From Horticoccus luteus (GTDB lineage: Bacteria; Verrucomicrobiota; Verrucomicrobiia; Opitutales; Opitutaceae): a stretch of 32,000 nt of DNA. Shown here piece by piece: positions 8,985-30,400 of this stretch (positions within the stretch are counted from its first letter, which is position 1; each line of letters starts with the position of its first letter). A program made the translations under genes and the position numbers. The stretch is taken from assembly GCF_019464535.1 (NCBI RefSeq), contig NZ_CP080507.1:3330001-3362000 (forward strand). The letters are read 5' to 3'. Under the pieces are notes generated by a model. The model did not search any database. It was not told where the DNA came from and saw nothing but the letters and a program-made list of their open reading frames with translations.

Positions 8985-11339
8985 TTAGAACCGGGTGCCA
9001 AAAGAAAAGTTAAACTGGTTTCCTTTTTTGGCGGCCTTGTCGCCCGTGAGCGGAATGCCCAAATCGAGGCTCAAAGGCGCTCCCGCCACAAACAGGCGGA
9101 TGCCAAAACCGAAATTGTCGTGGTAGTCGGAGGGGTTGAAATCGTAGGCCCCTTTGTTCACGAAGCCGGCGTCGTAAAACACGGCGAAGCGGATCGGGCT
9201 GACGATATCCATGGAGTATTCAGCGCTGAACATCCCGTAAGACTTGCCACCGATGGGCTCGCCCACTCGGTCGCGCGGACTCACATCGTAATACTCGAAG
9301 CCGCGCAAAGTCGTCGGGCCACCGAGATAGAATCGATTGTAATAAGGCACGTCCGTGCTGCGCCCATAGTTCTGGATGACGCCCGCACGAGCCAGGAGAC
9401 TCAACACCTGGGTTTGCGTTTCGAAGATCGGGAAGAACTGCGCTCCGCGGAATTCCAAGCGATAGTAGTCTTCGCTGCCTCCCAAAACGCCGCCCGCAAC
9501 ATCAGCATCAAACTCCACGCGGTTGCCCATCGTGGTGTTGATGATCTTGTCCCGCGTATCACGCAGAAGCTGCAAACCGACTCGGGAGATATAATGTTTT
9601 CCCGCGTAGTCGCTGATGTAAACCGAGGCATCAGGCGAGACGTTGGTGATGTCGATGAAGCCAAAACTGTAAGAGACGCGGCCTTCGACCAGTTCGAAGA
9701 GGCGCTTGCGCAGATAAACTTCGGCGTTGGTTTGGACCTGCGTGTAATAGCTGCTGTTGTAATCGGATGACTGACGCGAGAGGTTGAAGCCAAGCGCGAG
9801 TTCGCGTTGCAGGAACCACGGCTCCTCAAAGGAGAGCGTGGCTTCACTGGACAGCGAGCCGAGTTGCAAACGCAGCCGGAACTTCTGGCCATCGCCCTGA
9901 AAGAGCGAGCGACGGTTGAATAAGTCGAAATTGGATTGGGAAACTTCCGCGAAAACGGTCGCGCGTTCCAGCGAGCTGAAACCGGCGCCGAACGTCAAAT
10001 TGCCGGTGCGCCCTTCCTTGACCGCGACACGGAGGTTGCGGCGTCCAGGGATGTTCGTGTCCTGCGGCGAAAGATTCACATCGTCGAAAAACCGCGTGTT
10101 CTCGAGACGCAGCTTGCTGATTTTCATCCGCACGCTGTTGAACACATCGCCCGGTCCGAGCGTAAGTTCGCGCAGGATCACGGTGCTTTTGGACTTGGTG
10201 TTCCCCTCGATGACGATCGACTCGACGTGGAATTTGTCGCTCTCGTTCACATCGTATTGGATATCGATGTTACCGGTCGCGATGTTCGGCTTGCGCGACA
10301 AGCGCACGCGGGTGTCGAGATAGCCGTCGCGGCCGTAAAAATCCTCGAGCCGCTCCACATCCTTATCGAGTTTTGACGGCGCGAAAATCGCGCCGCTCTT
10401 TTGGCGCACCACGCGGCCGAGCAATTGCGAGGAATAGAGTTTGTTTCCGCTGAACGTAATTGCGCCCACGCGGTAGCGGCGGCCTTCCACCACGCGGATC
10501 GTGATCAACAGTTTCGAAGGCGTTGGGTAGTCGTAGGAGATCTTGTCAGGCGCGATCTCGACGTCGAGATACCCTTGTTCGCGGTAGAAATCGCGCAGCT
10601 TGTCGAGGTCGTCTTCGAACTGCTCGTCCTTGAAACGCCCGGATCCCGTCAACCAAGAGAACATCCACCATTTCTTCGTCTCCATCTCTTTGCGCAACCG
10701 GCGGTCCTTGACGTTGGCATTGCCGACGAAACGCACCGCGGCGATCTTCACCTTGGCGCCTTCCTTGATCTTGAAAATAATTGTGCCGAAGCCAGTGCTC
10801 CGATCGCGGTCGATCGCGTAATTGACCGACACTTGGTTGTAACCGCTCTTCTGATAATATTCGCGCAACTTTTCGACGTCCTCTTTGACCTGGCGCTCAT
10901 CGAGCGAGGTATTTGGCTTGGACTTCACTTCCTTTTCCAAGCGCTTCGATTTCACCGCTTTATTGCCTTCAAAGCGCACCGCCAGCACGCGAAACTTGGG
11001 GGTGATCTCCACCACGAGGTTCACAGTGTGATCCGGGAGGACCTCGCGTTTGACTTCGATGAACTCAAACAAACCGGTCTTATAGAGCGAACGAATGTCG
11101 CGATCGATCATCGCCTCGTCGAGTTCGCCGCCCTCATGGACTTGCATGTTGGCGCGCACAACCTGCTCGCTGACAATCGCGTTGCCGATGAATTTGACCG
11201 CGATCTTGCCGACGCGATAGACCGGCGCTTCCGGAGCGCGCTGGGCATAGCCGGTCGTCAAACCGGCTAATAATAAGAGACCAAACGCAAAGAAAGCGCC
11301 GATGGCCCGGCGATGCGGGCTACTGAGTGAAGTTTTCAA
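8985..11339 (-). CDS. bamA: Outer membrane protein assembly factor BamA
   Basis: 784 aa. A signal peptide is followed by about five POTRA-like units (repeated I..I.F.GN...S...L patterns). The C-terminal beta-barrel ends ...FNFSFGTRF with a terminal aromatic residue. Confidence 0.9.
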   Translation of the reverse strand: MKTSLSSPHRRAIGAFFAFGLLLLAGLTTGYAQRAPEAPVYRVGKIAVKFIGNAIVSEQVVRANMQVHEGGELDEAMIDRDIRSLYKTGLFEFIEVKREVLPDHTVNLVVEITPKFRVLAVRFEGNKAVKSKRLEKEVKSKPNTSLDERQVKEDVEKLREYYQKSGYNQVSVNYAIDRDRSTGFGTIIFKIKEGAKVKIAAVRFVGNANVKDRRLRKEMETKKWWMFSWLTGSGRFKDEQFEDDLDKLRDFYREQGYLDVEIAPDKISYDYPTPSKLLITIRVVEGRRYRVGAITFSGNKLYSSQLLGRVVRQKSGAIFAPSKLDKDVERLEDFYGRDGYLDTRVRLSRKPNIATGNIDIQYDVNESDKFHVESIVIEGNTKSKSTVILRELTLGPGDVFNSVRMKISKLRLENTRFFDDVNLSPQDTNIPGRRNLRVAVKEGRTGNLTFGAGFSSLERATVFAEVSQSNFDLFNRRSLFQGDGQKFRLRLQLGSLSSEATLSFEEPWFLQRELALGFNLSRQSSDYNSSYYTQVQTNAEVYLRKRLFELVEGRVSYSFGFIDITNVSPDASVYISDYAGKHYISRVGLQLLRDTRDKIINTTMGNRVEFDADVAGGVLGGSEDYYRLEFRGAQFFPIFETQTQVLSLLARAGVIQNYGRSTDVPYYNRFYLGGPTTLRGFEYYDVSPRDRVGEPIGGKSYGMFSAEYSMDIVSPIRFAVFYDAGFVNKGAYDFNPSDYHDNFGFGIRLFVAGAPLSLDLGIPLTGDKAAKKGNQFNFSFGTRF

Positions 11340-15500: not shown

Positions 15501-15703
15501 GAATTCGTTCCCCCTGAGACCTCGGCATGAGGGCAGGCGTAGTGAAAAGAGGGTCACGTGATACGTTCGTCAGGAGGGAACGCAATCAAAACTTTGGCGG
15601 GTCCGGGAATTTCTCCTTCGTTGGTCAAAAGGAGCATTGACAGGAATGAAACCGGTCCTGTTGTTCATCGCCTCTTCGCACACGTGAGCGTGCGACGCCA
15701 CAT

Positions 15704-15778
<75 letters not shown>

Positions 15779-15946
15779 TTTCGCGCAAAAAGATGTGCAA
15801 TCGGCGCCAGCGCCCTCCGGTTCTGGCGCATTAACCGCGGCGACCAACGCGGATGCGCCGGCGGAGATGGCGCCACGAAACACCTCACGCGGAATCGCCA
15901 GGGTCGAGTCCAACGTGTCGAGCGTGATGACGGTTCGGACCAGCAA

Positions 15947-16162
15947 ATGGTTCTTGCGGACGAGTTAGTAGCAGTAGAACGCCTCCCGCATGGGACTTTC
16001 GTCGCACGCCGAGCGGAGGTGAACGTGGAGAATCTCGGCGCATGCTCCACGCTCTTCCGTTGGGCCGATGCAGGGAAGATCGTCCGCCACAAAATCAACG
16101 CTCACCTCCCGCTGTCCGACGAAGCCGCGATCGTGTCGCTCGCCCAAGGTGTGCGTGTTTAG
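15947..16162 (+). CDS. Hypothetical small protein with a weak excisionase/MerR-like HTH resemblance
   Basis: 71 aa. The segment AEVNVENLGACSTLFRWADAGKIVRHKI loosely fits the HTH_17 / AlpA-Xis pattern (LG.s..T.yRW...G.i). Codon bias is only moderate and there is no clear RBS. Confidence 0.2.
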   Translation: MVLADELVAVERLPHGTFVARRAEVNVENLGACSTLFRWADAGKIVRHKINAHLPLSDEAAIVSLAQGVRV

Positions 16163-16213
16163 GAGCGATTCCGCGGCGCGACGTCTTCCACTGCCAGTGG
16201 CACGCGCATAGCC

Positions 16214-16295
16214 GGTTTGTCCAAGGACATCAGCGGTTTCGTTCAAGGAATTCGGCTGCGCCGTTCAATCGGCGAACGGGCGTTTTGGCTATCGT
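16214..16295. promoter_or_regulatory. Copy A of a duplicated 82-bp promoter/operator module, upstream of the FixH-like/peroxidase operon
   Basis: Aligns without gaps to 20211-20292 (offset exactly 3997 bp). By my hand count, 54 of the first 59 nt and 66 of all 82 nt are identical. It contains TCCAAGGA-N14-TTCAAGGA and TTCAAT-N20-TATCGT. Confidence 0.6.
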
Positions 16296-16344
16296 GAGTC
16301 CCATCACCGCAATTCCGCGGTGCCCCAACCATACGACACTCCCG

Positions 16345-16809
16345 ATGCACTCGATTCCACGCTTCTCTCATTCCGGCCGCTTCCGGCTCGGTCTTCTTCT
16401 CGGCCTCGTTCTTCTCGGCACCGGCGCCTGCGCCCATTTGGCGATCTGGCCCGGGGAAAAGCCGCCGGCCTCCGAATTCGGCTTCGGCCCGCGGGTCTCC
16501 GAGCACGGCCTCTACACGGTCGCGCTGGAGCCCGCGGAGGCGCTTCGAGCCCGCCGCCTGCAAAAGATTTCCGTGCTCGTCCGTGACGCGGCAGGCCAGG
16601 CGATCAGTGGCGCCACGCTTTCCGTCGACGGCGGTATGCCGCAACACGGACACGGTCTCCCGACGCAGCCGCGCGCCATCCCCGCGTCGGCGCACGGCAC
16701 CTACGCCATCGAAGGGCTTCGCTTCAACATGGGCGGCTGGTGGGTGCTCGCCCTGACGATCGACGGCCCACTTGGCGCCGACCGCGTCATCTTTCACCTC
16801 CAGATCTGA
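16345..16809 (+). CDS. FixH/YtkA-like periplasmic (possibly lipo-) protein with a Met/His motif
   Basis: 154 aa from the ATG at 16345. The hydrophobic leader ends ...LLGTGAC. The C-terminal pattern VLVRDAAGQAISGATLSVDGGMPQHGHG...GTYAIEGLRFNMGGWWVLALTI matches the Ig-like FixH/YtkA-type domain as I remember it. Confidence 0.6.
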   Translation: MHSIPRFSHSGRFRLGLLLGLVLLGTGACAHLAIWPGEKPPASEFGFGPRVSEHGLYTVALEPAEALRARRLQKISVLVRDAAGQAISGATLSVDGGMPQHGHGLPTQPRAIPASAHGTYAIEGLRFNMGGWWVLALTIDGPLGADRVIFHLQI

Positions 16810-16828
16810 GACGCCAAACTTCCCCGCC

Positions 16829-18040
16829 ATGATTCGGATCACCTTTCTCGTCGCGCTCGCCGCGATCCCCGCCGCTCGCGCCGCCGAAGGGTGGAGTCCC
16901 GCTGAAATCGCGGAAATCCGTCACTTCTCGCTCGCCGAACTCGGCGCGCCACCGGCCGATTCCAGCAATCGGTTCGGGGACGATCCGCGCGCCGCGGAAT
17001 TGGGCCGGAAGTTATTTTTCGATCCCCGCCTGAGCGCGAACGGCCGGGTCTCCTGCGCGACCTGCCACCAGCCAGAGCGGGATTTTCAAGATGGCCTGCC
17101 GTTGAGCAAAGGCGTGGGCACGACGAATCGCCGGGCCATGCCCATCGCAGGCACGGCGCATCTTCCCTTCCTCTTCTGGGACGGACGCAAGGATAGCCAA
17201 TGGGCGCAAGCTCTCGGGCCGCTCGAAAGCGCCGTCGAGCACGGTGGCTCCCGAGCGCAATACGCCCACGTGATCGCCGAGCACTATCGTCCCGACTACG
17301 AAGCCATTTTCGGCCGATTGCCGGACCTCGCGTCGGTTCCCGCGCAGGCCGGCCCCGTGGCCGATGCTCACGCCGCTGCGGCGTGGCGCCAGCTATCGGA
17401 AGAGCAGCGCAACGCGGTCACCGGGATCTTTGTGAACCTCGGCAAGGCCATCGCGGCCTACGAGCGCCGGATCGAGCCGGGAAAATCCCGCTTCGATCGG
17501 TATCTCGATTCGTTGCTCGCCACGGGGCGCGCGCCCACCGACGTGCTCACCGCGGATGAACAGGCGGGCCTGCGCCTCTTCGTCGGCAAGGCCAACTGCG
17601 TGCAATGCCACAACGGTCCGCTCTTCACCAATGGTGATTTCCACAACACGGGCGTGCCCGCCATCCCTACCCTCCCGCGCGATCACGGCCGTCGGGATGG
17701 CGCGCGGCAAGTGCTCACGGACGAGTTCAACCGGCACAGCCGATGGAGCGATGCGCGCGCCGAAAGCGCAGAGATTGATTTTGTGAAGCCCAACGCCCGC
17801 GAGCAGGAACGCGCCTTCAAGGTCCCGTCGCTGCGTGGCGTCGGCGAGCGCGCCCCCTACATGCACGCCGGGCAAATCGCCACGCTCTCGGCCGTGCTCC
17901 GTCACTACAACCAAGCCCCCGCCGCTTCCGCCGGTCACAGCGAACTCCATCCGCTGAAACTCGCTGATCACGAACTCACCCAACTCGAGGCGTTTCTCCG
18001 CGCGTTAAGCGCCTCCGCAGCCTCGCCGGCCGGCAAGTGA
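16829..18040 (+). CDS. Di-heme cytochrome c peroxidase (CCP/MauG family)
   Basis: The signal peptide is MIRITFLVALAAIPAARAAEG. There are two CxxCH heme motifs, CATCH and CVQCH (the latter followed by NGPLFTNGDFHNTG), plus PSLRGV...APYMHAG, all typical of bacterial CCPs. The start is set at the ATG at 16829. Confidence 0.9.
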   Translation: MIRITFLVALAAIPAARAAEGWSPAEIAEIRHFSLAELGAPPADSSNRFGDDPRAAELGRKLFFDPRLSANGRVSCATCHQPERDFQDGLPLSKGVGTTNRRAMPIAGTAHLPFLFWDGRKDSQWAQALGPLESAVEHGGSRAQYAHVIAEHYRPDYEAIFGRLPDLASVPAQAGPVADAHAAAAWRQLSEEQRNAVTGIFVNLGKAIAAYERRIEPGKSRFDRYLDSLLATGRAPTDVLTADEQAGLRLFVGKANCVQCHNGPLFTNGDFHNTGVPAIPTLPRDHGRRDGARQVLTDEFNRHSRWSDARAESAEIDFVKPNAREQERAFKVPSLRGVGERAPYMHAGQIATLSAVLRHYNQAPAASAGHSELHPLKLADHELTQLEAFLRALSASAASPAGK

Positions 18041-18071
18041 GCGAGTGCGAAGCTCAACCGAATTTACGGTC

Positions 18072-18134
18072 ATGATTGCTGCCATTGTCATCCTCACGTT
18101 GCTCGTTGCCTTGGTTTCAACCGAGGAGCGATGA
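18072..18134 (+). CDS. Possible 20-codon hydrophobic mini-ORF (MIAAIVILTLLVALVSTEER)
   Basis: ATG at 18072. Its TGA stop overlaps the ATG of the next gene as ATGA (18131-18134). It encodes a single hydrophobic helix. There is no obvious RBS, and it is too short for statistical support. Confidence 0.2.
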   Translation: MIAAIVILTLLVALVSTEER

Positions 18135-19309
18135 GCGTCACTGCGGTGCGCTCTCGTCATCGTGCCGTCGTGATCGCCGTGCGAGCATCCGTCCATCTAC
18201 AACGCGGATTGTTAGGCCTCTCCATGTTGACCGTTTCCCTCGCAGCACAGAATCCGTCCAATCCCGCAGCCCTCGACGACGGCTGGACCATCGCAGAGCC
18301 GCAAGCGGCGGGTTTTGACGCCGCGAAGCTGCGCGGGAACTTTGCCACGATGCTGAGCGGCGAAGTGAATCTCCATGCTGTCATCGTGGAGCGGCACGGC
18401 AGGTTGGTGGCCGAGGGCTACCGCACCGGCCGCGATAAACCTCAGTTCACCTTTCTCAGTCGCATCGTCGCGTTCGGACCAGCGGTGCGTCACGACACGC
18501 GATCGGTCGGCAAAAGTGTGATCGCCCTGCTCGTGGGCATCGCTCAAGCCCAGGGTAAGCTTGGACCAGCCGGTTCGGCCGTCCTCGATTTTTATCCAGA
18601 ACTCGCGGACCTCGCTACGCCGGCCCTGCGCAAAATCACGGTGGCGGACTTGCTCACCATGGGCAGTGGCTTGGCGTGGCGCGAATCCGGCGCAGGCTTT
18701 CCCACCGACGAAGATCGACTCGCCTGGAAGAAATCTCAGATCCGTTTCGTGCTGGGTCGTCCGACCGTGGCCGAACCCAGCCGTCGCTTTAACTACAATA
18801 GCGGCGGCACTGTCGTGCTGGCGGACATCCTGGAGCGGGCGACCCACATGCCTTGGACCGAGTTCGCCCGCACAGCTCTCTTCGAGCCGTTGGGGATCAG
18901 TGATGTTGAGTGGGTCACCGATCTCCGCAGTCGCCCCATGGCCAATAGCGGTCTGCGCCTTCGCCCGAGAGACATGGCGAAGCTCGGTCGCCTCGTGCTC
19001 AACCGCGGCAAATGGAAGGAGCGGCAGGTTGTTCCTGCGGCGTGGATCGACGAAATGCTGCGACCACGCCTTGCCACGGGCGTGGAGGACACCCGCTACG
19101 GCTACCAATGGTGGACGGGCAGCGTGAACTGGCAGGGGCGCTCTCTGCCGTGGCACGCCGCCTGGGGCAACGGCAGCCAGCGCATTTTCGTGATCCCTGA
19201 CTTGGACATGACCGTGGTGTTCACCGCCGGTGCCTACGGTGACCCGCAGACCGTCCGCCAGGTGCAGAAGTATTTTCAGGCCTTGGTGGATTCAGTCGCG
19301 GCTCAATGA
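18131..19309 (+). CDS. Serine hydrolase, class C beta-lactamase/PBP4*-related family
   Basis: 392 aa with an SxxK motif (SVGKS). It also has YNSGG and WGNGSQ where the YxN and KTG/HxG-like elements sit, and a signal-like N-terminus. The start is uncertain (18131 or the ATG at 18224). Confidence 0.8.
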   Translation: MSVTAVRSRHRAVVIAVRASVHLQRGLLGLSMLTVSLAAQNPSNPAALDDGWTIAEPQAAGFDAAKLRGNFATMLSGEVNLHAVIVERHGRLVAEGYRTGRDKPQFTFLSRIVAFGPAVRHDTRSVGKSVIALLVGIAQAQGKLGPAGSAVLDFYPELADLATPALRKITVADLLTMGSGLAWRESGAGFPTDEDRLAWKKSQIRFVLGRPTVAEPSRRFNYNSGGTVVLADILERATHMPWTEFARTALFEPLGISDVEWVTDLRSRPMANSGLRLRPRDMAKLGRLVLNRGKWKERQVVPAAWIDEMLRPRLATGVEDTRYGYQWWTGSVNWQGRSLPWHAAWGNGSQRIFVIPDLDMTVVFTAGAYGDPQTVRQVQKYFQALVDSVAAQ

Positions 19310-19348
19310 GAGACGCCCCGCGCCGACTTCAGTGAGGCCGGCGTCGGG

Positions 19349-20239
19349 TCAACTTGGACCGGCAAACGGCGAAGGGATTTCAAAGAAAACGCCGCGCAGC
19401 ATAACGGTCGGCGGAATCCCAAACATCTCGATAAAGGTGCGCGTCAGATGCGCCGCGTCGGCGAAATCTGCCGCGTGCGCGGCGGCGGTCGCGGTCCCTT
19501 CGCGCCCCATGGCGACCATGGCACGCGCCAGCTTGCGCCAGAGCACGTAGCGCCGGAAGGGAAGCCCCATCTGCTGTTTGAAGAGATGCTGAAAACGACT
19601 CGGGGAGAGGAACGCCGACTTGGCCGCCGCGGCGAGCGAGAGCCGGAGATCATCGGACCGTTGAATCTGTTGCAGCACCTTGGTCACGCGGGGATCGAGC
19701 CGGCGCGCCGGCAACGCGCCCGCCGACAGCGCCTGCACACAGTGCCGGATGAGCGCGCCGATCTCCAGGCTCTCCAGCGGATGATCGCGAAAGCGGGCCA
19801 GTTCCGCCACGCATGCCGCTACACGGCCCTCTGGCATGATCGTAACATCTCTCTGGAGGGAGGCCCGTAACCAGACGCCTTCCGTCGACTCGGGATCGAT
19901 CAAGAACATCGCGGCAAGGGCGCCTTTGCCGTCGAAACAATGTTCACGATCCGGGCCCACCACGATGCCGCGGGCGGACCGCCAGACTTCATCCTCGTCC
20001 TGCACGGCAATTTCGCCTTCGAGCGCCACCACGATCTGAATCGCGTGGTGCGCGTGGCGCGGCACGACGCCCTGCGCCCGCCCCATGGCCATGAACCCGC
20101 CGTCCCACACATACCAGCACACCGTGTCCGACACCTGCACATCGGTGCGGGTGCTTTTGCCACAGGACGAAGACGCAGCCGGCATCGCTGATTCGATGTC
20201 GGGCCTAGCTGGTTTGTTCAAGGACATCAGCGGTTTCAT
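19349..20239 (-). CDS. AraC-family transcriptional regulator (N-terminal cupin-like domain plus C-terminal double HTH)
   Basis: 296 aa. The C-terminus reads ...LSLAAAAKSAFLSPSRFQHLFKQQMGLPFRRYVLWRKLARA...AAHAADFADAAHLTRTFIEMFGIPP, a classic AraC HTH pair. The start may instead be the internal ATG at about 20185. Confidence 0.85.
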   Translation of the reverse strand: MKPLMSLNKPARPDIESAMPAASSSCGKSTRTDVQVSDTVCWYVWDGGFMAMGRAQGVVPRHAHHAIQIVVALEGEIAVQDEDEVWRSARGIVVGPDREHCFDGKGALAAMFLIDPESTEGVWLRASLQRDVTIMPEGRVAACVAELARFRDHPLESLEIGALIRHCVQALSAGALPARRLDPRVTKVLQQIQRSDDLRLSLAAAAKSAFLSPSRFQHLFKQQMGLPFRRYVLWRKLARAMVAMGREGTATAAAHAADFADAAHLTRTFIEMFGIPPTVMLRGVFFEIPSPFAGPS

Positions 20240-20292
20240 TCAAGGAATTCGACAGGGCCGTTCAATCGGTCCGCGAGCAATCCCGCTATTGT
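20211..20292. promoter_or_regulatory. Copy B of the duplicated 82-bp promoter/operator module, in the AraC / DJ-1 divergent region
   Basis: See copy A. It contains TTCAAGGA-N14-TTCAAGGA (direct repeat, 22-bp pitch) and TTCAAT-N20-TATTGT. It overlaps the first 10 codons of the annotated AraC ORF. Confidence 0.6.
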
Positions 20293-20305
20293 GGGAGCGC
20301 TCAAC

Positions 20306-21631
20306 ATGAACTCCCTAAATTCCCACTCGCCATGGTCGTCGCAGCGCTCCGCCCGCGCGGTCGCGAATGAATGTCTCACGACTTATCCGCCCCAGTGGAC
20401 GCCAGCGATGCTGCGCGCCTCCGGGACGAAAGTCTTCTTCGCGCCGCGGACAACGGCTCCGATTCTTCCGTTCCTCGGCCGCGCATTCCTGCTGGGTGTT
20501 GCGCTCCTCGGTATCGCCCAAGCCGCGTTCGCCGAGCAACCGTCGCTCGATGCAGCCACGCAGCCGTCGACCGTCGACGCGCCGCTTCCGGTCTACCGTG
20601 CGCGGTTCGAGCGCACGCGCCCGGTCATCGCCATCGTCGGTGAAAACTCCGGCACGGAACTGAGCGACTTCGCGATTCCCTACGGCGTGCTCGTGCGGGC
20701 CGGCGTCGCGGAGGTGATCACGGTTGCGACCCAACCGGGCGTGCTGCACATGCGCCCGGCATTGCAGGTGCAGCCCGACGCCTCGATCGCGGAGTTCGAC
20801 GCCCGCTTCCCGCAGGGTGCGGACTACGTGATCGTGCCCGCGGTGGTGAAGTTCAACGACCCGACGCTGCTCGCCTGGGTGAAGGCCCAGGGCACGAAGG
20901 GCGGAATGGTCGTCAGCATCTGCGACGGCGCGGCCGTCGTCGCGGGCACAGGCTTGATGGACGGCCACCGCGCTACAGCGCACTGGGCGAGCGCCAAAAA
21001 CCGCCGCCGACTGTTTCCCTCAGTGAAGTGGATCGATAACATCCGTTACGTCGCCGACAGACAGATTATCTCCACCGCCGGCATCAGCGCCGCGTTGCCC
21101 ACGTCGATTGCCTTGGTCGAGGCCATCGCCGGCCGCGAACGCGCAGCGAGTCTCGCGCGTGAACTCGGGGTCTCCGACTGGGGCACGGCCCACGACACGG
21201 CGCAGTTCCGGCCCCGGCTCGGGGTCAACCTGCGAGCGCTGATCGCCGTGACCTATACGAATGGCTGGTTTCGTTCGACCGAGATGATCGGCCTGCCGAT
21301 CGCGGACGGCGTCGACGAGATCGCGCTCGCCGTCACCGCCGACGGTTATTCCCGCACCGGCCGCAGTTTGTTGCACGCGTTGTCCGCCTCATCGGCTCCC
21401 GTGCGCTCGCGCTCCGGGTTGATGATCGTGCCGGACACGCGCACGGACGGCCGCCCCATGGACCGGGAGTTGCCGCCGCTCGAAGCCTATCCCTCGGCGG
21501 AGTCGTTCGTGAAAACCATCGACGGCATCCACCGGCTTTACGGTCGCACTACAGCCTACGGCGTGGCGCTCAACTTTGAGTATCCCCTGATTCCGAAGCG
21601 CTCGCTCGCGAATGAGGCGCTAGCGCAATGA
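20306..21631 (+). CDS. Secreted DJ-1/PfpI (class I glutamine amidotransferase-like) family protein with a C-terminal extension
   Basis: The nucleophile-elbow region is GGMVVSICDGAAVVAGTGLMDGHRATAHW. The hydrophobic leader FLGRAFLLGVALLGIAQAAFA precedes it. About 170 extra C-terminal residues follow the domain. The start is uncertain: GTG 20291, ATG 20306 (GGGAG lies 8 nt upstream) or ATG 20408. Confidence 0.7.
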   Translation: MNSLNSHSPWSSQRSARAVANECLTTYPPQWTPAMLRASGTKVFFAPRTTAPILPFLGRAFLLGVALLGIAQAAFAEQPSLDAATQPSTVDAPLPVYRARFERTRPVIAIVGENSGTELSDFAIPYGVLVRAGVAEVITVATQPGVLHMRPALQVQPDASIAEFDARFPQGADYVIVPAVVKFNDPTLLAWVKAQGTKGGMVVSICDGAAVVAGTGLMDGHRATAHWASAKNRRRLFPSVKWIDNIRYVADRQIISTAGISAALPTSIALVEAIAGRERAASLARELGVSDWGTAHDTAQFRPRLGVNLRALIAVTYTNGWFRSTEMIGLPIADGVDEIALAVTADGYSRTGRSLLHALSASSAPVRSRSGLMIVPDTRTDGRPMDRELPPLEAYPSAESFVKTIDGIHRLYGRTTAYGVALNFEYPLIPKRSLANEALAQ

Positions 21632-22101
21632 AGACGGTTGCTCTCAAGTTGGCGCTCCGCATTCCGCCGCTTGTGCTCACGTTCCTCGCGGGCGTCGGGG
21701 CATGGGCCATCGCCCAAGCGTTCCCCGCGCTGCGCTTCGAATCGGCGAACCTCACCGTGGTCGCCGCCGGCCTCGGCTTGCTCGGCATCGGTTGCAGCCT
21801 GCTCGGCGTCATTTCCTTTCGCCGCGCGCACACGACCGTGAATCCCATGGACCCGTCTGCCGCTGCGGCGCTCGTGGTTTCAGGCGTCTATCGTTTCACG
21901 CGCAATCCGATGTATCTGGGTTTTCTCTGCCTGCTGCTCGGAGAAATCGCGTGGCTCGGCAGTCCTGTCGCGTTACTCGCCGCGCCCGCGTTGGTGATTT
22001 ACCTGAACCGTTTCCAAATCGCCCCGGAAGAATCCGCTCTACGCGAGCGCTTCGGAACGGAATTCGTCACTTACACCGCGCGCGTGCCGCGCTGGCTCTA
22101 A
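21628..22101 (+). CDS. ICMT/PEMT-family membrane methyltransferase
   Basis: 157 aa with multiple TM helices and the diagnostic-looking GVYRFTRNPMYLG ... E(E)xxL...FG..F..Y motifs. The start overlaps the previous stop as ATGA. Confidence 0.8.
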   Translation: MKTVALKLALRIPPLVLTFLAGVGAWAIAQAFPALRFESANLTVVAAGLGLLGIGCSLLGVISFRRAHTTVNPMDPSAAAALVVSGVYRFTRNPMYLGFLCLLLGEIAWLGSPVALLAAPALVIYLNRFQIAPEESALRERFGTEFVTYTARVPRWL

Positions 22102-22105
22102 TTCC

Positions 22106-22590
22106 ATGGCTATTTCAATTGGCATCAGCTCGGCCCTCGCGGTTGGCGTCTTCGCAAAGTGGTTTGGGTTGGATCGCGACCGCGCATTTTACCCCACGGT
22201 CATGATCGTGATCACATTCCTGCATGTGCTGTTCGCCGCCATCGGGGGCGAGGCAGCGGTTCTCGTCGCCGCCGGCATCGACCTGGGTTTCGCGACCCTC
22301 GCCGCCCTCGGCTTCAAAAACAGCTTCTGGTTCATCGTCACCGCGCTGAACGGACACGACACGCCATCGAGAACGGCGAAGTGCCGATGTGGTGGCCGGG
22401 CGTTTGCTCTGCCTACGACGTGACCGCGGGCATCTGGCTCGGGCTGCAGCTCTATCGTGCCCGGTTGCACGCCCCGAAAGGCCAACCGTGGACCCTTCAC
22501 CTTTTCGAGCGGCGCACGCGATTCTCGCCCAGTCGCTGTAAGATTTCGCGAATGACTCCGTCGACAGGGATGAAACTCAATCACCCATGA
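22106..22590 (+). pseudogene. Small membrane protein gene disrupted by a 5-bp tandem duplication (ACACG ACACG at 22354-22363)
   Basis: Frame A (22106-22423) is hydrophobic and codon-biased up to ...TALNGH. After that, GC3 bias and protein-like sequence (AIENGEVPMWWPGVCSAYDVTAGIWLGLQLY) continue in the frame of ORF 22159-22590. Deleting one ACACG copy joins the two into a single 159-codon ORF (480 nt). Confidence 0.65.
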
Positions 22591-22834: not shown

Positions 22835-23386
22835 ATGGTCGCCGATAAATCGAGTTCACCCTCCGCCAACGAAGTGATCGCCCAACTCGTGGCGCATCGC
22901 CGGGCGTTCAAAGCATTCCTTGCATCCCGCGTCGGCAACGAAGCCGATGCCGAGGATTTGCTGCAGAATGGCCTGGTGAAGGCGTTGAGCCGTGCGGACG
23001 AAATAAAAGACGGCGAGAAAGCGGTGGCGTGGTTCTATCAACTTTTGCGCAACGCGATCATCGATCACGTGCGCAGCCGCCACGCTGCCGCCACACGCGA
23101 CGACCGTTGGGCGGCGGAGACGGCCATCTTGGCCGACGACGTCGAGGTCGACCGCCAGATTTGCGCCTGCGTCGAACGGCTGTTGCCGGCACTCAAGCCG
23201 ATTCACGCCGACCTCATTCGTCGCGTGGAACTGCAAGGAGAGTCGGTGGCTCAGGCCGCAGGCGCTCTCGGGATGACGCCGAACAACGCGAGCGTCACGT
23301 TGCATCGCGCCCGGGAAGAGTTGCGCAGAAAATTCGTGCGTTTCTGTGGCGACTGCCGGTGCCTGAATGTTTGCGACTGCGCCTGA
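22835..23386 (+). CDS. ECF (group IV) sigma-70 factor with a CxC linker motif and a Cys-rich C-terminal tail (CorE-like)
   Basis: 183 aa. The sigma-2 region is DAEDLLQNGLVKAL...AWFYQLLRNAIIDHVR. The sigma-4 region is LIRRVELQGESVAQAAGALGMTPNNASVTLHRAREELRRKF. Cys110-x-Cys112 lies between the two domains, and the terminal sequence is FCGDCRCLNVCDCA (5 Cys in the last 13 residues). No anti-sigma gene is adjacent. Confidence 0.85.
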   Translation: MVADKSSSPSANEVIAQLVAHRRAFKAFLASRVGNEADAEDLLQNGLVKALSRADEIKDGEKAVAWFYQLLRNAIIDHVRSRHAAATRDDRWAAETAILADDVEVDRQICACVERLLPALKPIHADLIRRVELQGESVAQAAGALGMTPNNASVTLHRAREELRRKFVRFCGDCRCLNVCDCA

Positions 23387-24409: not shown

Positions 24410-27400
24410 TCAGGGCTTCCACTTCGTGATCGTTATGGTGGCGGCGGAGGTTTTGGCGGAGGGGTCGAGGAGGACGTCGTAGCCGAAGAGGAGGAGGTTG
24501 CCGTTGGGGACGGAGAGGGAGACGTTGGCGGCGATGGTGAGGGTGCCGTGGTTGTCGCGTTCGAAGTCGGCCATGAGGGCCAGGCGGTTGCCGGAGGACA
24601 GGAGGGAGCCCTGGGTGACGGTGATGTCGCCGTAGGCCGAGAACTCGACGTTGGCCTGGCCGGCGATGGTGCCGATGCCGATCGCGAGGTTGCCGGTCGT
24701 CTGCACCAAGAGCGTGCCTTTGGAGCGCAGGGCGCCTTCGTTGAGGATGATTTCCACGGGCGTGCCGGCGCCGAAGAGCAGGTCGCCGACCTGCAGGGTG
24801 GTGGCGGCGTTCACTTCGGAGAGGGCCTGGATCAGCATGAAGCGGCCCGTGGTGTCGCGGTTGTAGTTGGCGAAGATGCTCACGGCGCCGGCGAGGGAGT
24901 TCACGCGGCCGAAGTTGGCGCCCAGGCCGCCGATGGTGACGTTTTCGCCGCCGAGGACGAGGTCGAGTTGCGCGGTGACGAGCACCGGCGCGGCGGCCCC
25001 CAGGGTGAGGTCGCCCGTGCCGTTGTGGTCGGAGTCCGCGCTCAGGGTGAGCGCGCCGGCGGGCGTTTGCAGGATCGTGCTTTGCAGGGTCACGTTGCCG
25101 GCGGAGGTAAGGCTGATGGCGCCCAGGGCGGTCAGGAGGAGGTTTTGCGCGACCACGTCGGCGGCGCTGCGGACGGTGATCCTGCCCAGGGCCTGCAACT
25201 GGCCGCGGAGGGTCAGCGTGCCGGTGACGGGCGTGGTGCCGCCGGTCGTAATCAAGAGGTCCGTGCCCGCTTTCAACTGGGTGTTATCGTTGGCGAGGGT
25301 CAGCGTGCCCTGGCCGTTGGCGTTCAGGTCGACGGTGAGGGTGATCGCGCCTTGGAGGGCGAGCAGTTCGGCGCGGTTGGTCGCGGTGCCGATCTGGATC
25401 GCTTCGCCTTGGAGGACGATGCCGCCTTGGGCGACTTGCAGGACGCTGACGGCGTTTTGGGCGATGCGGACGGCCCCGTGGTTGTCCCCGTCGGTGTCGG
25501 CGGTGAGGGTCAGCGTGCCGCTAATGCCGATCGTGAGGTTCGCGTCGATGGTGAGGTCGCCGCCGGTGCGGGCCGTGAGGTTGCCTTGGGCGCCGCTCGT
25601 GCGGACCGCGCCGTGCACGGTCAGGGTGCCGGCCGCGGCGGGCGCGGAGAACAGGACCGCGGTGCCGAAGGTGCTTTGATAGACGTCGATCGCATGGGCG
25701 CCGTCGGTGCGGCCGATCTGCACTTCGGTGAAGGCCGCGGGCACGGCGATTTCCGGAGCGAGGAGGTCGAAGCCGCCGGCCTGGCCGACGGTGATCGGTT
25801 GCGTGAGGGAGGCCGGTTGCAGGATCAGGCGGCCGGTGCCGGTGATCGAGCCGGCCGCGCCTTGCAGGTTCAGGAGGTCGGCGGTGATCGTGACGAGGCC
25901 CGTGCCGGCGAGGAGCTTGGCGCCGGTTTCCTGCGTGAAGGCGCCGGTGCCGGGGCCCGCCTGCAGGGTCAGGGGGTTGGCGCCGGTGACGGTGAGGGTC
26001 TGGTTCGCGAGGAGGACGATCGTGCCGGTGGCCTGCGGGGAGCGGATGAGGGTCGGGTTGACCAGGGTCACGGTGCCGAGGTCGATGCGGGCGGAGGAAT
26101 CGGCGCGGCCGAGGACGACCTGGCTGAAGCCGGGCGCCAAGGCTTCGAGGCTCGTCTGGGAGAGGAGGTAGGCGTAGGCGGAGGGGGTGGGCACGTTGCC
26201 CAGGCCGATCGTGGCGACGTTGGTCGCGGGTGCGGCGATGAACTGGCCGTGGTTCAAGGTGTGGATCGAGCCCGGGCCGCCGGTGAGGGTGAGCGAGCCG
26301 GAGCCGAGGACGAGGTCGCCTTGCACGGTCACGGTGGCGGCGAAGGTGAGCGCGCCGGTCGTGGTGATCGTCAGTTGCGTGAGGGGGGTTTGCGCGCCGA
26401 GGGCCTGGGCGAAGGAGACGTCGCCGGAGCCGGCGTCGATCGTCAGGGCGTAGGCGCCGTCGATGGTCTGGTCGAAGGTCACGTCGCCGCCGGAGGTCGT
26501 GATCAGGGTGTCGCGGGGCAGGACCACGTTGCCGGTGAAGTGGAGGTTTTCGCCGTGGGTGACGAGGTCTTCGTCGAGGGTGACCGCGCCGGAGGTGGAG
26601 ATGTTCAGGTCGCCGCCGCCGGCGTGGGCGGTGTCGTATTTGACTTTGCCGGTGCCGATGACGGTCAGGCTGATGTCGCCGGTGCCGCCGGCGTCGACGT
26701 TGACTACATGGAGGTTGCCTTGGTCGAGGCTGAGCGCGATGTCGCCGTCTTGGGTGGTGGCGTCGGTGACGAGGAGCGTGCCGCCGGCCTGGCTGTAGGC
26801 GATGGCACCGGTGCCGGTGGCGAGGTGGGTGACGGTGACGTCGGTCGTGAGGAGGTTGCGCAGGCGGATGTCGCCGGTCGTCGAGGTGGCGGAGAGCGTG
26901 GGGACGGCGACGACGACGGGGTCGAGGGTGCCGATGCCGGTGCCGGCTTGGAGCGTCAAGAGGGCGGCGGTGAACTGGGTGCCGGTCGAGGCGCGTTCGA
27001 GGCGGCCGGCGGCGGTGGCGGTGATCGTGTCGTTCTCGGCGAGGACGGTGCCCACGAGGAGGTCGGCGCCGGCGGTGAGGGTGATGTCCGCGGTGCCGCC
27101 CGCCGTGAGGGCGGTGGCGGTCAGGGTGCCGGCGGTCGTCAGCGTGATCGCGCCGTCGGTCGTGGTCGCGGTGACGGTCAGGTTGCCGGTGTCGGCGAGG
27201 ACCAGGGTGCCGGGGCCGGAGATCGCGGCGTCGAGGGTGCCAAGGGTCGTGTTGAGGTCGTTGGCGGCGGTGCCGAGGGAACCCACGCTGCGGAGCGTGG
27301 CGGCGGCGCCGAGGAGGTTCGGGGCTTCGGTGGCCAGGTTGTCGGTCAGGTCCGCGCCGGTCGTGAGCACCATGGCGCCGGTGCCGGCGTCGATGATCGA

Positions 27401-30400
27401 GACCGCAAGGCGTTGCGCGGCGGTGACGGTGAGCAGGCCGCCGGCGGAGGCGAGGCGCGAACCGGAGTCCATCGTGATGGCGCCGGTGGCGGTGTGCAGC
27501 GTGAGGGTGCCGCCGGTCGTCGCGATCGTCGCGGCGGAGGAGAGCGTGATCGCGGCGGGCGCGTCCAGGAGGATCGGGCCGGTGCCGGAGCGGACGCCGG
27601 CGTTGACTTGGAGATTCGAGGCGGCGCCACCGGGCAGGAGCGTGATCGCACCGGTGCCGGCGGCGGAGAGGGCGAGGCCGTCGGCGTCGGCGCCGTCGTT
27701 GAGCGTGAGGGTGCCGTTGGTTGTGCGCAGCGTGATGGCCCCGTTCGCGGTCGTGGTGAGGTCGGCGAGGGAGGGTTCGGTGACGGTCGTCGTCGTGAAG
27801 TTGGCGTTCACCTTGGCGAGGGCGAAGGTCACCGTGTCGATCGTCAGCGCGGTCGCGTTGAGGATGTTCAGGCCGCCGCTGCCGGCGGTGCCGGCGAGGA
27901 GCGCCGTCGCCAGGGTGAGCGGGGTCGCGGCGGTGCCGGCGCCGGTGCCGGCTTCCAGGCGGACCGCGGTGGCGGTGAGGTTCGCGGCGGCGGTGCCGGC
28001 GGTGTTGTCCAGGATCGAGGCGCCGGAGCGGATCAGGATGCGGCCGGTCGTCGCCCGGACTTGCGCGAGGCGCACGTCGGCGCCGGCGAGGAGGCGGAGG
28101 GAGCCCGCGGTCGTCGTGAGGGTCGAGGTGGCCGCGAGGGTCAGGGCTCCGGTCGTCGCTTCGAGGTCGAGGTCGCCGGCCGTTTGCACGGCCACGGTCG
28201 CGGCGGTGGTGAGGTCATGGCCGGCGAGGAGCGTGATCGCGCCCGTCGCGGAGATGACGTCGGCGTTGAGCAGGAGGTCGCTCGTCGCGCCGCCGGCCGA
28301 GAGGAGGATCCGGCCGGTGCCGGCCGCGCTGACCGCGGTGTGATTGGCGTTGCCCCCGTCGTTCAGGGTCAGCGTGCCGTTGAGGGTGCGCAGCGCGATC
28401 GAGCCGTTCGCGGTGGTCGTGAGGTCGGAGAGGGTTTCGGCGGTGAGTGCGGTGGACGTGAAGTCGGCGGCGACGGCGCGCACGGTGATGCTGACGTTCG
28501 TGATCGTGAGGGCGTTGTCTTCGACGAGGCTGATGCCGGCGGAGCCGGCGCTGGCGGCCAGGGTGTCGAGGCCGACTTCGAGGGGGTTCGTGGACGTGCC
28601 GATACCCGTGCCGGCGACCAGGCGCGCGGCGCTGGCGCTGATGTCTTGATAGGTGTCGCCGCCGTCGAGGATCGAGCCGGCGGTCGCCGTGAGCGTGACT
28701 GAACCCGTGCCGGCTTGGATGCCGCCGAGCGTGATGTCGGTCGCGGCAAGGAGGCGGACGTTGCCGCCCGACGTGGCGATTTGCGCGTTGTCGGCGAAGA
28801 GGATGGCACCCGCGCTGGCCACGAGGTTCACGTCGCCGCCAGTGGTTTTGATGTCGGCGGTCGTGGTGAAGGTGAGGTTCGTCGCGCCGAGGAGTGTGAT
28901 GTCGCCGCTGCCGCTGAGGATGTCCGCGTTCGCGGTGACGTTCGCGGCGGAGAAGTAAACGTTGCCGCTGCCGTTCGCGCTGACCGCCGTGTTGTTGGCG
29001 AAGCCGTCGTTCAGCGTGAGGTCGCCGGCGATAATCGTGAGAGCGATCGAGCCGTTCGCGGTGGTCGTGAGGTCGGAGAGGGTTTCGGCGGTGAGCGCGG
29101 TGGACGTGAAGTCGGCCGCGACGGCGCGCACCGTGACCGACACGTTGGTGATCGTGAGGGCGTTGTCTTCGACGAGGCTGATGCCGGCGCTGCCGGCGCT
29201 GGCGGCGAGCGTGTCGAGGCCGACTTCGAGCGGGTTCGTCGCGGTGCCGATGCCGGTGCCGGCAACCAGGCGGGCGGCGCTGGCGCTGATGTCTTGATAC
29301 GTGTCGCCGCCGTCGAGGATCGAGCCCGCGGTGGCGGTCAGGGTGACGGAGCCGGTGCCGGCTTGGATGCCGCCGAGCGTGATGTCGGTCGCGGCGAGGA
29401 GGCGGACGTTGCCGCCCGACGTGGCGATTTGCGCGTTGTCGGCGAAGTGGATCGCACCCGCGGTGGCCACGAGGTTCACGTCGCCGCCGGTCGTCTTGAT
29501 GTCGGCGGTCGCGTTGAAGGTGAGGTTCGTTGCGCCGAGGAGCGTGATGTCGCCGCTGCCGCTGAGGATGTCCGCGTTCGCGGTGACGTTCGCGGCGGAG
29601 AAGTAAACGTTGCCGCTGCCGTTCGCGCTGACCGCCGTGTTGTTGGCGAAGCCGTCGTTCAGCGTGAGGTCGCCGGCGATAATCGTGAGAGCGATCGAGC
29701 CGTTCGCGGTCGTCGTGAGGTCGGAGAGGGTTTCAGCGGTGAGTGCGGTGGAGGTGAAGTCGGCCGCGACGGCGCGCACGGTGATGCTGACGTTGGTAAT
29801 CGTGAGGGCGTTGTCTTCGAGGAGGCTGATGCCGGCGCTGCCTGCGCTGGCGGCGAGCGTGTCGAGGCCGACTTCGAGCGGGTTCGTCGCGGTGCCGATG
29901 CCGGTGCCGGCAACCAGGCGGGCGGCGGACGCGCTGATGTCTTGATACGTGTCGCCGCCGTCGAGGATCGAGCCCGCGGTCGCAGTCAACGTGACTGAAC
30001 CCGTGCCGGCTTGGATGCCGCCCAAGGTGATGTCGGTCGCGGCGAGGAGGCGGACGTTGCCGCCCGACGTGGCGATTTGCGCGTTGTCGGCGAAGTGGAT
30101 CGCCCCCACCCCGGCCACGAGGTTCACGTCGCCGCCGGTGGTTTTGACGTCGGCGGTCGCGTTGAAGGTGAGGTTCGTCGCGCCGAGGAGTGTGATGTCG
30201 CCGCTGCCGCTGAGGATATCGGCGTTCGCGGTGAGGTTCGCGGCGGAGAAGTAAACATTGCCGGTGCCGTTCGCGCTGACCGCGGTGTTGTTGGCGAAGC
30301 CGTCGTTCAGCGTGAGGTCGCCCGCGATGATCGTGAGGGCGATGGAGCCGTTCGCGGTCGTCGTGAGGTCGGAGAGGGTTTCGGCGGTGAGTGCGGTGGA

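Follow-up and report, generated by a model that had tools for sequence, protein, structure and literature searches.

We describe here a short regulatory module that occurs twice in a 32,000-nucleotide stretch of the Horticoccus luteus genome (Verrucomicrobiota, Opitutaceae; RefSeq assembly GCF_019464535.1, contig NZ_CP080507.1, positions 3,330,001 to 3,362,000 of the forward strand), a stretch that is referred to below, at its full length, as the window and to which all coordinates apply. The middle of the window harbors two operons on the plus strand, the first of which (operon A) encodes a YtkA/FixH-like protein, a di-haem enzyme of the cytochrome c peroxidase (CCP) or MauG/MbnH-like type and a protein with the beta-lactamase fold, and the second (operon B) a DJ-1/PfpI-domain protein, a methyltransferase of the PEMT/ICMT family and a small membrane protein; the gene for an AraC-family regulator lies between the two. 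An earlier reading of this DNA, hereafter the original prediction, had proposed these gene assignments, apart from the small membrane protein, for both operons and for the regulator, and the Pfam domains bear them out. Each operon is preceded by one copy of the module; copy A stands without a regulator gene next to it, whereas copy B separates araC from the divergently transcribed DJ-1 gene. As argued below, it is highly probable that both copies are tandem-repeat activator sites of the AraC/XylS type and that the one adjacent regulator serves the two operons as a small regulon.

An ungapped alignment of positions 16214-16295 with positions 20211-20292, at an offset of 3997 bp, contains 66 identical nucleotides out of 82 overall and 54 of 59 in the left part, reproducing all the counts of the original prediction; given the base composition of the window, the binomial probability that any pair of positions in it yields at least 66/82 identities is about 6e-15. 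The direct repeat T(T/C)CAAGGA-N14-TTCAAGGA, which had been reported for both copies, is indeed found exactly at 16220-16249 and at 20217-20246, with 0.00 occurrences expected in shuffled sequences, and both copies also contain TTCAAT-N20-TAT(C/T)GT. Homology is limited to about 16209-16297 and 20206-20294, and the flanks beyond both modules are unrelated as judged by MAFFT alignment and by ungapped extension; the similarity ends within a few bases of the module edges. A nucleotide profile built from 14 instances of the module retrieved, with nhmmer, copy A at 16209-16296 (E=9e-26) and copy B at 20206-20294 (E=1e-24).

Each module, about 90 bp in length, consists of three head-to-tail units of 22 nt with the core GTTCAA, followed by a promoter -10-like box (Table 1). 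The periodicity is sharp: at a lag of 22 nt, the self-identity of the two copies is 26/44 and 25/44, compared to 5-16/44 at the neighbouring lags, and about 22 nt is the size expected for the site of one AraC-type DNA-binding domain with two helix-turn-helix (HTH) motifs. Alignment of the 14 independent instances yields a unit consensus of roughly CAGCsGnTTyGTTCAAGGAAnT, with the individual forms tAGCCgGTTTgTTCAAGgaCAT for unit 1, CAGyGGnTTCgTTCAAGGAATT for unit 2 and CGnCnGnGCCGTTCAATCgg for unit 3. In every unit, a distal AGCC/AGCG box is located some 10 bases, that is, about one helical turn, 5' of the GTTCAA core, and the apparent spacer CATCAGCGG is conserved because it forms the distal box of unit 2. 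The core is perfect (GTTCAAGGA) in units 1 and 2, whereas the promoter-proximal unit 3 has the weaker GTTCAATCGG. The original prediction recognized two half-sites and a separate TTCAAT element; these sequences are present, but TTCAAT is actually the core of a third unit in phase with the other two rather than a -35 element. A consensus sigma-70 pair of -35 and -10 elements in TTCAAT-N20-TATYGT was rejected since the spacer is 20 bp instead of 16-18 bp and TTCAAT is in register with the unit cores. The distance from GTTCAAT to the hexamer is 20-21 nt in 20 of 20 instances, and the A in position 2 and the T in position 6 of the hexamer (TAnnnT or nAnnnT) are retained even in other phyla.

The evidence that connects the module with the regulator comes from the loci of other genomes (denoted L001, L002 and so on), among which the closest named relatives of the window locus are metagenome-assembled genomes (MAGs) of Opitutus and Oleiharenicola. 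At every locus examined that encodes an ortholog of the AraC-family regulator, the module is present, with unit 1 toward araC and the -10-like hexamer away from it. The genes transcribed divergently from the regulator are DJ-1-ICMT-membrane protein (L002, L003, L004/L018 and L010), ICMT-membrane protein (L001), YtkA-CCP-ICMT-membrane protein (L031/L032), YtkA-CCP-two flavoproteins-multicopper oxidase-DJ-1 (L033/L034) or YtkA-CCP (L023). Because genes of the two window operons are thus joined elsewhere in single AraC-divergent operons (L031, L033), they belong to one shuffled gene set. Moreover, a copy of the module without an adjacent AraC gene precedes YtkA-CCP in the window and in L029/L030, L035, L036 and L037; the left flanks of these copies are unrelated to each other, homology begins exactly at unit 1, and the synteny between the window and L029 (86% identity) sets in at 16204, where the module has its left edge. 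The order seen in the window, namely, module A, YtkA, CCP and (hydrolase), convergent araC, then module B, (DJ-1) and ICMT, recurs in full in L029, L037 and a JGI contig, extends as far as a truncated araC in L036 and L030, and is represented in L035 by just module A with YtkA-CCP. The module stands beside all AraC orthologs examined, is kept at YtkA-CCP operons that lack AraC, and in other genomes precedes single operons that combine genes of both, so comparative genomics lends strong support to the suggestion of the original prediction that one AraC protein may co-regulate both operons. In L036 (174-6483), the cassette is located beside genes for a conjugative relaxase and a coupling protein (TrwC, TraG-like). 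The cassette may be horizontally mobile. A search of metagenome contigs for the regulator identified seven loci, two of them useful. In the literature, we found no paper linking an AraC-family regulator to the YtkA/CCP/DJ-1/ICMT gene set, and the regulon is uncharacterised in the searchable literature.

The two types of copies are old. Copy A of the window is identical to copy A of L037 in 74 of 82 positions, copy B of the window is identical to copy B of L037 and to that of L029 in 77/82 each, and the two window copies match each other in 66/82. Since A is closer to A and B is closer to B across genomes, the duplication is older than these lineages and predates the split of at least three of them. 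A recent segmental duplication is rejected because the window copies are less alike than either is to its orthologous copies (66/82 vs 74-77/82), and the identity matrix gives no sign of gene conversion between A and B copies. The differences between A and B are in columns that also vary between species. This pattern indicates that both copies are under selection, with the 54/59 identity of the left part pointing to purifying selection on the units. Variants of the module retain its phasing: in L001 (3137-3176), exactly one 22-bp unit has been lost with the hexamer spacing kept, the GTTCAA core of unit 2 having recombined with that of unit 3; L033 (5810-5894) contains a second, diverged three-unit module inside the operon, 5' of multicopper oxidase-DJ-1; and in the Gemmatimonadales contig L019, two two-unit operators (241-277 and 1122-1166) flank a single AraC gene.

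Across 596 Gb of GTDB representative genomes, the two-unit operator in its exact form, GTTCAAGGAA-N11-CGTTCAAT, is matched 16 times, roughly as often as chance is estimated to produce a pattern with 18 fixed bases. No fewer than five of these 16 sites adjoin an ortholog of the regulator (two in Opitutaceae, two in Gemmatimonadales and one in a MAG labelled Devosiaceae), and in a Gemmatimonadaceae contig among the matches, AraC is divergent from YtkA-CCP-multicopper oxidase. The match in L008 (Sulfitobacter) lies inside a coding open reading frame (ORF) and was rejected as a chance one; near the remaining matches, there is no AraC, YtkA or CCP. In the distant genomes the operators consist of two units, which makes the third look like an addition of the Opitutaceae; the two-unit and three-unit forms found in relatives have an identical pitch. 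The same exact pattern has no matches in metagenome contigs, evidently because that collection lacks these contigs or because the pattern is too strict. When run on 364 kb of DNA from related loci, the profile of the module matches regulon positions alone, apart from the internal copy of L033. The original prediction had allowed that a motif found at many unrelated loci would be a generic dispersed repeat; with two copies in the 32-kb window and none off regulon positions in 364 kb, the module does not behave in this manner. A repeat of the repetitive extragenic palindrome, bacterial interspersed mosaic element or miniature inverted-repeat transposable element kind (REP, BIME or MITE) is rejected as far as the data reach, given the few copies and the direct orientation of the repeats, and no inverted-repeat pair involving the module is among the 25 longest pairs listed.

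Table 1. Features of the window discussed in the text.
Feature	Positions	Strand	Remarks
tRNA-Asn	15704-15778		430 bp left of copy A
93-aa ORF	15965-16246	-	at copy A; translation of the operator
Module copy A	16208-16297	+	candidate operator and -10-like box 5' of YtkA-CCP-hydrolase operon; no adjacent regulator gene
Copy A unit 1	16208-16229	+	ATAGCCGGTTTGTCCAAGGACA; core GTCCAAGGA at 16219-16227
Copy A unit 2	16230-16251	+	TCAGCGGTTTCGTTCAAGGAAT; core at 16241-16249
Copy A unit 3, promoter-proximal	16252-16273	+	TCGGCTGCGCCGTTCAATCGGC; core at 16263-16269; contains the TTCAAT of the original prediction
Copy A -10-like hexamer	16290-16295	+	TATCGT; 20 nt after GTTCAAT
Leader hairpin, A-type leader	16305-16322	+	CACCGC-AATTCC-GCGGTG; RNAalifold, five leaders
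YtkA/FixH-like protein, first gene of operon A	16345-16809	+	PF13115, E=1.8e-11
Di-haem CCP/MauG-MbnH-like enzyme	16829-18040	+	PF03150, E=2e-38
Beta-lactamase-fold protein (serine hydrolase), last gene of operon A	18131-19309	+	PF00144, E=5e-26
AraC-family regulator, 278 aa	19349-20185	-	likely start M19; longest ORF to 20239; PF12833, E=1.6e-14
Module copy B	20205-20294	+	divergent region between araC and DJ-1 operon
Copy B unit 1	20205-20226	+	core at 20216-20224
Copy B unit 2	20227-20248	+	core at 20238-20246
Copy B unit 3	20249-20270	+	core at 20260-20266
Copy B -10-like hexamer	20287-20292	+	TATTGT; DJ-1 ATG 14 nt downstream; very short leader
DJ-1/PfpI-domain protein, first gene of operon B	20306-21631	+	PF01965, E=8e-17; predicted N-terminal hydrophobic (membrane/signal) segment
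PEMT/ICMT-family methyltransferase	21628-22101	+	PF04191 and PF04140
Small membrane protein, end of operon B	22106-22590	+	disrupted: 22-nt deletion and frameshift near 22358
ECF sigma factor	22835-23386		downstream of DJ-1 operon
Giant ORF (>2500 aa)	24410-31969	-	Gly/Thr/Ala-rich repeats; runs off the window end

The regulator consists of a cupin sensor domain and a C-terminal dual-HTH DNA-binding domain (PF12833; AlphaFold pLDDT 88), with a predicted ToxT/Rns-like architecture and a structural match to CuxR as well. It is not an ortholog of AraC, as it scores 42 bits against the cut-off of 208 of the NCBIfam AraC equivalog, nor is it an ortholog of XylS. The HTH recognition regions, FLSPSRFxHLF...GLPFRRYVLWRKL and AAAH...F(A/S)D(A/S)AHLTRTF, are nearly invariant among homologs whose overall identity ranges from 90% down to 45%, matching the invariance of the operator cores. 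In the sensor domain, H44, H46, H47, Q50 and H82 (numbering of the 278-aa form) are invariant in 50 homologs, giving the pattern H-x-H-H-x2-Q...H, and the classical metal-ligand pattern of the cupins is H-x-H-x3-(E/Q/H)...H. The sensor domains of the AraC family normally bind organic ligands, and a metal-ligand motif is unusual among them. The cupin domain alone superposes on the metal-binding cupin TM1459 over 78 columns with an rmsd of 2.7 A and 20-22% identity, and we infer that its predicted ligand residues correspond to those of TM1459. Searched by sequence, the sensor domain has no significant match in the PDB, and in Pfam just a sub-threshold match to Cupin_2.

Among the other genes, the di-haem enzyme scores under the cut-offs of both the MauG and the MbnH equivalog models. 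The gene for the small membrane protein is apparently disrupted: its tblastn match is split over two frames, residues 1-84 vs the conserved C-terminal 43 residues, and a 22-nt gap is seen in the nucleotide alignment with L029, so that it is either a pseudogene or the site of a sequencing error. The ATG of the DJ-1 gene is conserved in the orthologous leaders. In B-type modules, this start codon is located 14 nt past the -10-like hexamer, in TATTGTGGGAGCGCTCAACATG, which includes the palindrome GAGCGCTC (window 20287-20308), and the DJ-1 mRNA would be leaderless or nearly so, without a Shine-Dalgarno sequence. The YtkA-type leaders and some of the DJ-1-type leaders contain, just past the hexamer, a hairpin of the form CRCCGC-AATTYC-GCGGYG, which is also present in L029 (approximately 9961-9978), L031, L033 and L004. 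RNAalifold predicts seven pairs for this hairpin from five leaders; one change is compensatory and three affect a single side of the stem, two of the latter being G-U wobbles and one falling on a poorly supported pair. The support is weak; the hairpin might be a stem-loop that stabilises the 5' end or a second palindrome bound by a protein. The covariance models of Rfam, applied to 15600-20500, reach threshold for tRNA-Asn alone, and the module was accordingly rejected as a known structured RNA, be it a riboswitch, a leader or an sRNA. A scan found no relevant terminators at copies A and B. The ORFs between the tRNA-Asn gene and copy A have no Pfam matches and include no recognisable gene or homolog, and the 3' end of the tRNA gene is not repeated anywhere in the window in the att-like fashion that marks genomic islands. 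At its far end, the window contains a giant ORF in which a 648-nt unit is present in six or more tandem copies (28356-31895; 86-91% identity); the product of this ORF is probably an autotransporter or adhesin-like surface protein.

The site has the features of AraC/XylS-type regulation, namely, the dual-HTH domain of the candidate regulator, at least two direct sites of 15-20 bp at a pitch of 21-22 bp, and the co-occurrence of site and regulator. We infer binding, activation (not repression), autoregulation and the signal from these observations, and propose the following mechanism. Protomers of the regulator would bind the tandem 22-nt units in direct-repeat orientation, with the distal units held constitutively. 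Unit 3 ends 20 nt upstream of the TAnnnT hexamer and so would occupy the -35 position; if transcription starts about 7 nt after TAnnnT, units 3, 2 and 1 are at about -51..-30, -73..-52 and -95..-74, respectively. Filling of the weak unit 3 in response to the signal would then replace the missing -35 element, recruit RNA polymerase and activate both operons in a class II-like mode, as AraC does at I1-I2, XylS at Pm and MtlR at PmtlE. Copy B would drive DJ-1-ICMT-membrane protein and copy A would drive YtkA-CCP-hydrolase. The three units might be read via a register shift from units 1-2 to units 2-3 or, perhaps, via two dimers. Copy B probably also autoregulates araC because unit 1 is only about 20 nt from the araC start codon. 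Several observations weigh against this scheme. A consensus scan finds no sigma-70 promoters at either copy; the candidate hexamer is assigned as a -10 element through its conservation alone, and activation as opposed to repression is deduced from site position alone. Furthermore, three units do not map simply onto a dimer, and unit 1 is conserved in copies without AraC, so it cannot be kept for araC autoregulation alone.

The alternative that deserves most attention is that the same AraC-family protein is mainly a repressor, or a dual regulator, and that the module blocks a constitutive promoter until the signal arrives. The proximity of unit 1 to the araC start codon implies that binding must interfere with araC transcription, and the minus-strand core, TTGAAC, resembles a -35 element, such that occupancy could occlude leftward promoters; however, all units are upstream of the -10-like hexamer, with none overlapping it or the expected start, no consensus -35 element is present in the promoter, as is typical of activator-dependent promoters, and the sites are arranged as they are for the activators MtlR and XylS. 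We consider a predominantly repressing role unlikely. Considerably less probable still is that the module is bound by some other factor, for instance the extracytoplasmic function (ECF) sigma factor encoded downstream of operon B, the association with AraC being positional only. The closest relatives (L029 and the JGI contig) have the sigma factor gene in synteny, but most module-bearing loci, the more distant ones, lack it (L002, L003, L004, L031, L033, L016 and L019), whereas the AraC ortholog is the sole constant neighbour across phyla, and tandem 22-bp direct repeats are not the architecture of ECF promoters.

Two further possibilities are each regarded as extremely improbable. Copy A might be a functionless relic left by a segmental duplication or by a rearrangement, or else a short mobile or dispersed element whose position 5' of the YtkA operon is accidental, as might be surmised from the break of synteny exactly at its left edge, the nearby tRNA-Asn gene and the conjugative-transfer genes that adjoin the cassette in L036. 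Yet copy A is kept in five loci with five different left flanks, the columns that are invariant in it are those invariant in the AraC-adjacent copies, the divergence of A from B is older than the speciation, and there are no terminal inverted repeats, no other copies in the 364 kb and no dispersal of the exact motif in the 596 Gb. No AraC remnant was found between the tRNA-Asn gene and copy A; an AraC pseudogene to the left of this copy was rejected since tblastn against 15700-17000 returns just a 10-residue translation of the operator. Alternatively, the similarity between the copies could reflect coding constraint on the N-terminus of the regulator (MKPLMSLNKP...), with copy A as a decayed gene start: in both the window and L029, the reading frame continues uninterrupted across the module, and some database proteins begin with ...LNKPA.... 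The original prediction had copy B overlapping the first 10 AraC codons, and this is true of the longest ORF; however, the start at M19 is likelier, and the overlap is probably an artefact of choosing the longest ORF. The commonest length among the 120 homologs listed is 278 aa, starting at the equivalent of M19 (20185), downstream of the module, and even in this form, the first 13 residues have an AlphaFold pLDDT below 50. The longer database entries start at various codons inside the operator and in two frames ('...LNKPA...' or 'LNEPADVLEQTGY'), and in L004 the module is located about 60 nt upstream of the start codon. As had been described, the position homologous to the supposed ATG is ACG in copy A, with a stop about 27 codons further on, but 10 of the 14 aligned instances read ACG as well, making this the family consensus, and ATG is the minority state, confined to copy B, other B-type copies and L033. 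The copies without AraC conserve the same bases. Many gene calls extend the regulator into its own operator and thereby create pseudo-conserved peptides such as 'MSLNKPA', 'LNKLAIAGL' and 'MNEPADVLEQTGY' (P0002, P0009, P0015, P0016, P0020, P0026, P0029, P0045 and other entries); the 93-aa ORF at copy A is the same artefact. The comparison thus exposes a recurrent annotation artefact, the N-terminal extensions of this regulator in the databases being translated operator.

Returning to the activator site and its regulon, our best guess is that the signal is a metal, possibly copper, or an oxidative cue in the envelope, a guess that stems from the gene content and from the conserved metal-ligand motif in the cupin domain of the regulator. 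The YtkA domain family has been implicated in copper trafficking to CuA, as in CtaK and the YtkA domain of YcnJ (PMC13344008). In relatives, the gene set also includes a multicopper oxidase and an outer-membrane efflux protein; its other members are a YtkA-type, copper-chaperone-like protein, a MauG/MbnH-like di-haem enzyme, a membrane DJ-1 protein and an ICMT-like methyltransferase, all of them envelope genes, and the cognate 22-bp tandem operator is kept from Verrucomicrobiota to Gemmatimonadota. Conceivably, although we put this forward only as a tentative and rather doubtful idea, the regulator founds an uncharacterised class within the AraC family whose members sense metals (perhaps, copper) or sense redox state in a metal-dependent way, with a regulon of shuffled, horizontally mobile envelope genes. 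The analysis defines an operator, its geometry and a likely regulon for an unstudied AraC-family regulator of soil and freshwater Opitutaceae and of other phyla, and so provides a testable handle on the conserved envelope genes for the YtkA-like protein, the di-haem peroxidase, DJ-1, ICMT and, in relatives, the multicopper oxidase. It also suggests how one ancestral divergent operon could have split into two, each keeping a copy of the control region. An operator that is conserved across phyla and precisely phased, together with a sensor that looks metal-binding, offers a clean experimental entry.

Among the characterized systems, the promoter PmtlE of Pseudomonas fluorescens, which is controlled by MtlR, is perhaps the most similar: two direct-repeat blocks of 15 bp, at -72..-58 and -50..-36, are set at a 22-bp pitch, and the distal block is strong, whereas the weaker proximal block, which abuts the -35 region, controls whether the promoter is induced (PMC4514859). 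The module shares with PmtlE the direct repeats, the pitch of 22 bp and the combination of a strong distal and a weak proximal site. By contrast, the recognition sequence, the ligand domain and the regulon are unrelated, the Opitutaceae have a third unit and, twice per locus, the entire module, and MtlR/PmtlE has been dissected by experiment, the module described here by sequence comparison. AraC at araI1-I2 and XylS at Pm provide the classical precedent, that is, a dimeric activator with a cupin-type N-terminal domain and a dual-HTH C-terminal domain, tandem direct half-sites of 15-17 bp that recur about every 21 bp, the proximal one overlapping the -35 element, and a regulator gene that is divergently transcribed and autoregulated. 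The present system differs in its pitch of 22 bp and in the retention of a metal-ligand motif that is absent from the sugar-binding AraC, and we see no evidence here of a distant looping site as in AraC. The best structural matches to the predicted full-length regulator are ToxT, Rns and CsvR (Foldseek E=5e-9 to 1e-6; TM 0.46-0.60), which have the same two-domain architecture but a sequence identity of only 9-12%, and which sense fatty acids in the cupin pocket and control virulence genes, whereas the cupin of the regulator described here aligns with the metal-binding TM1459. The regulatory architecture is ordinary; one transcription factor with sites 5' of two operons is a textbook regulon.

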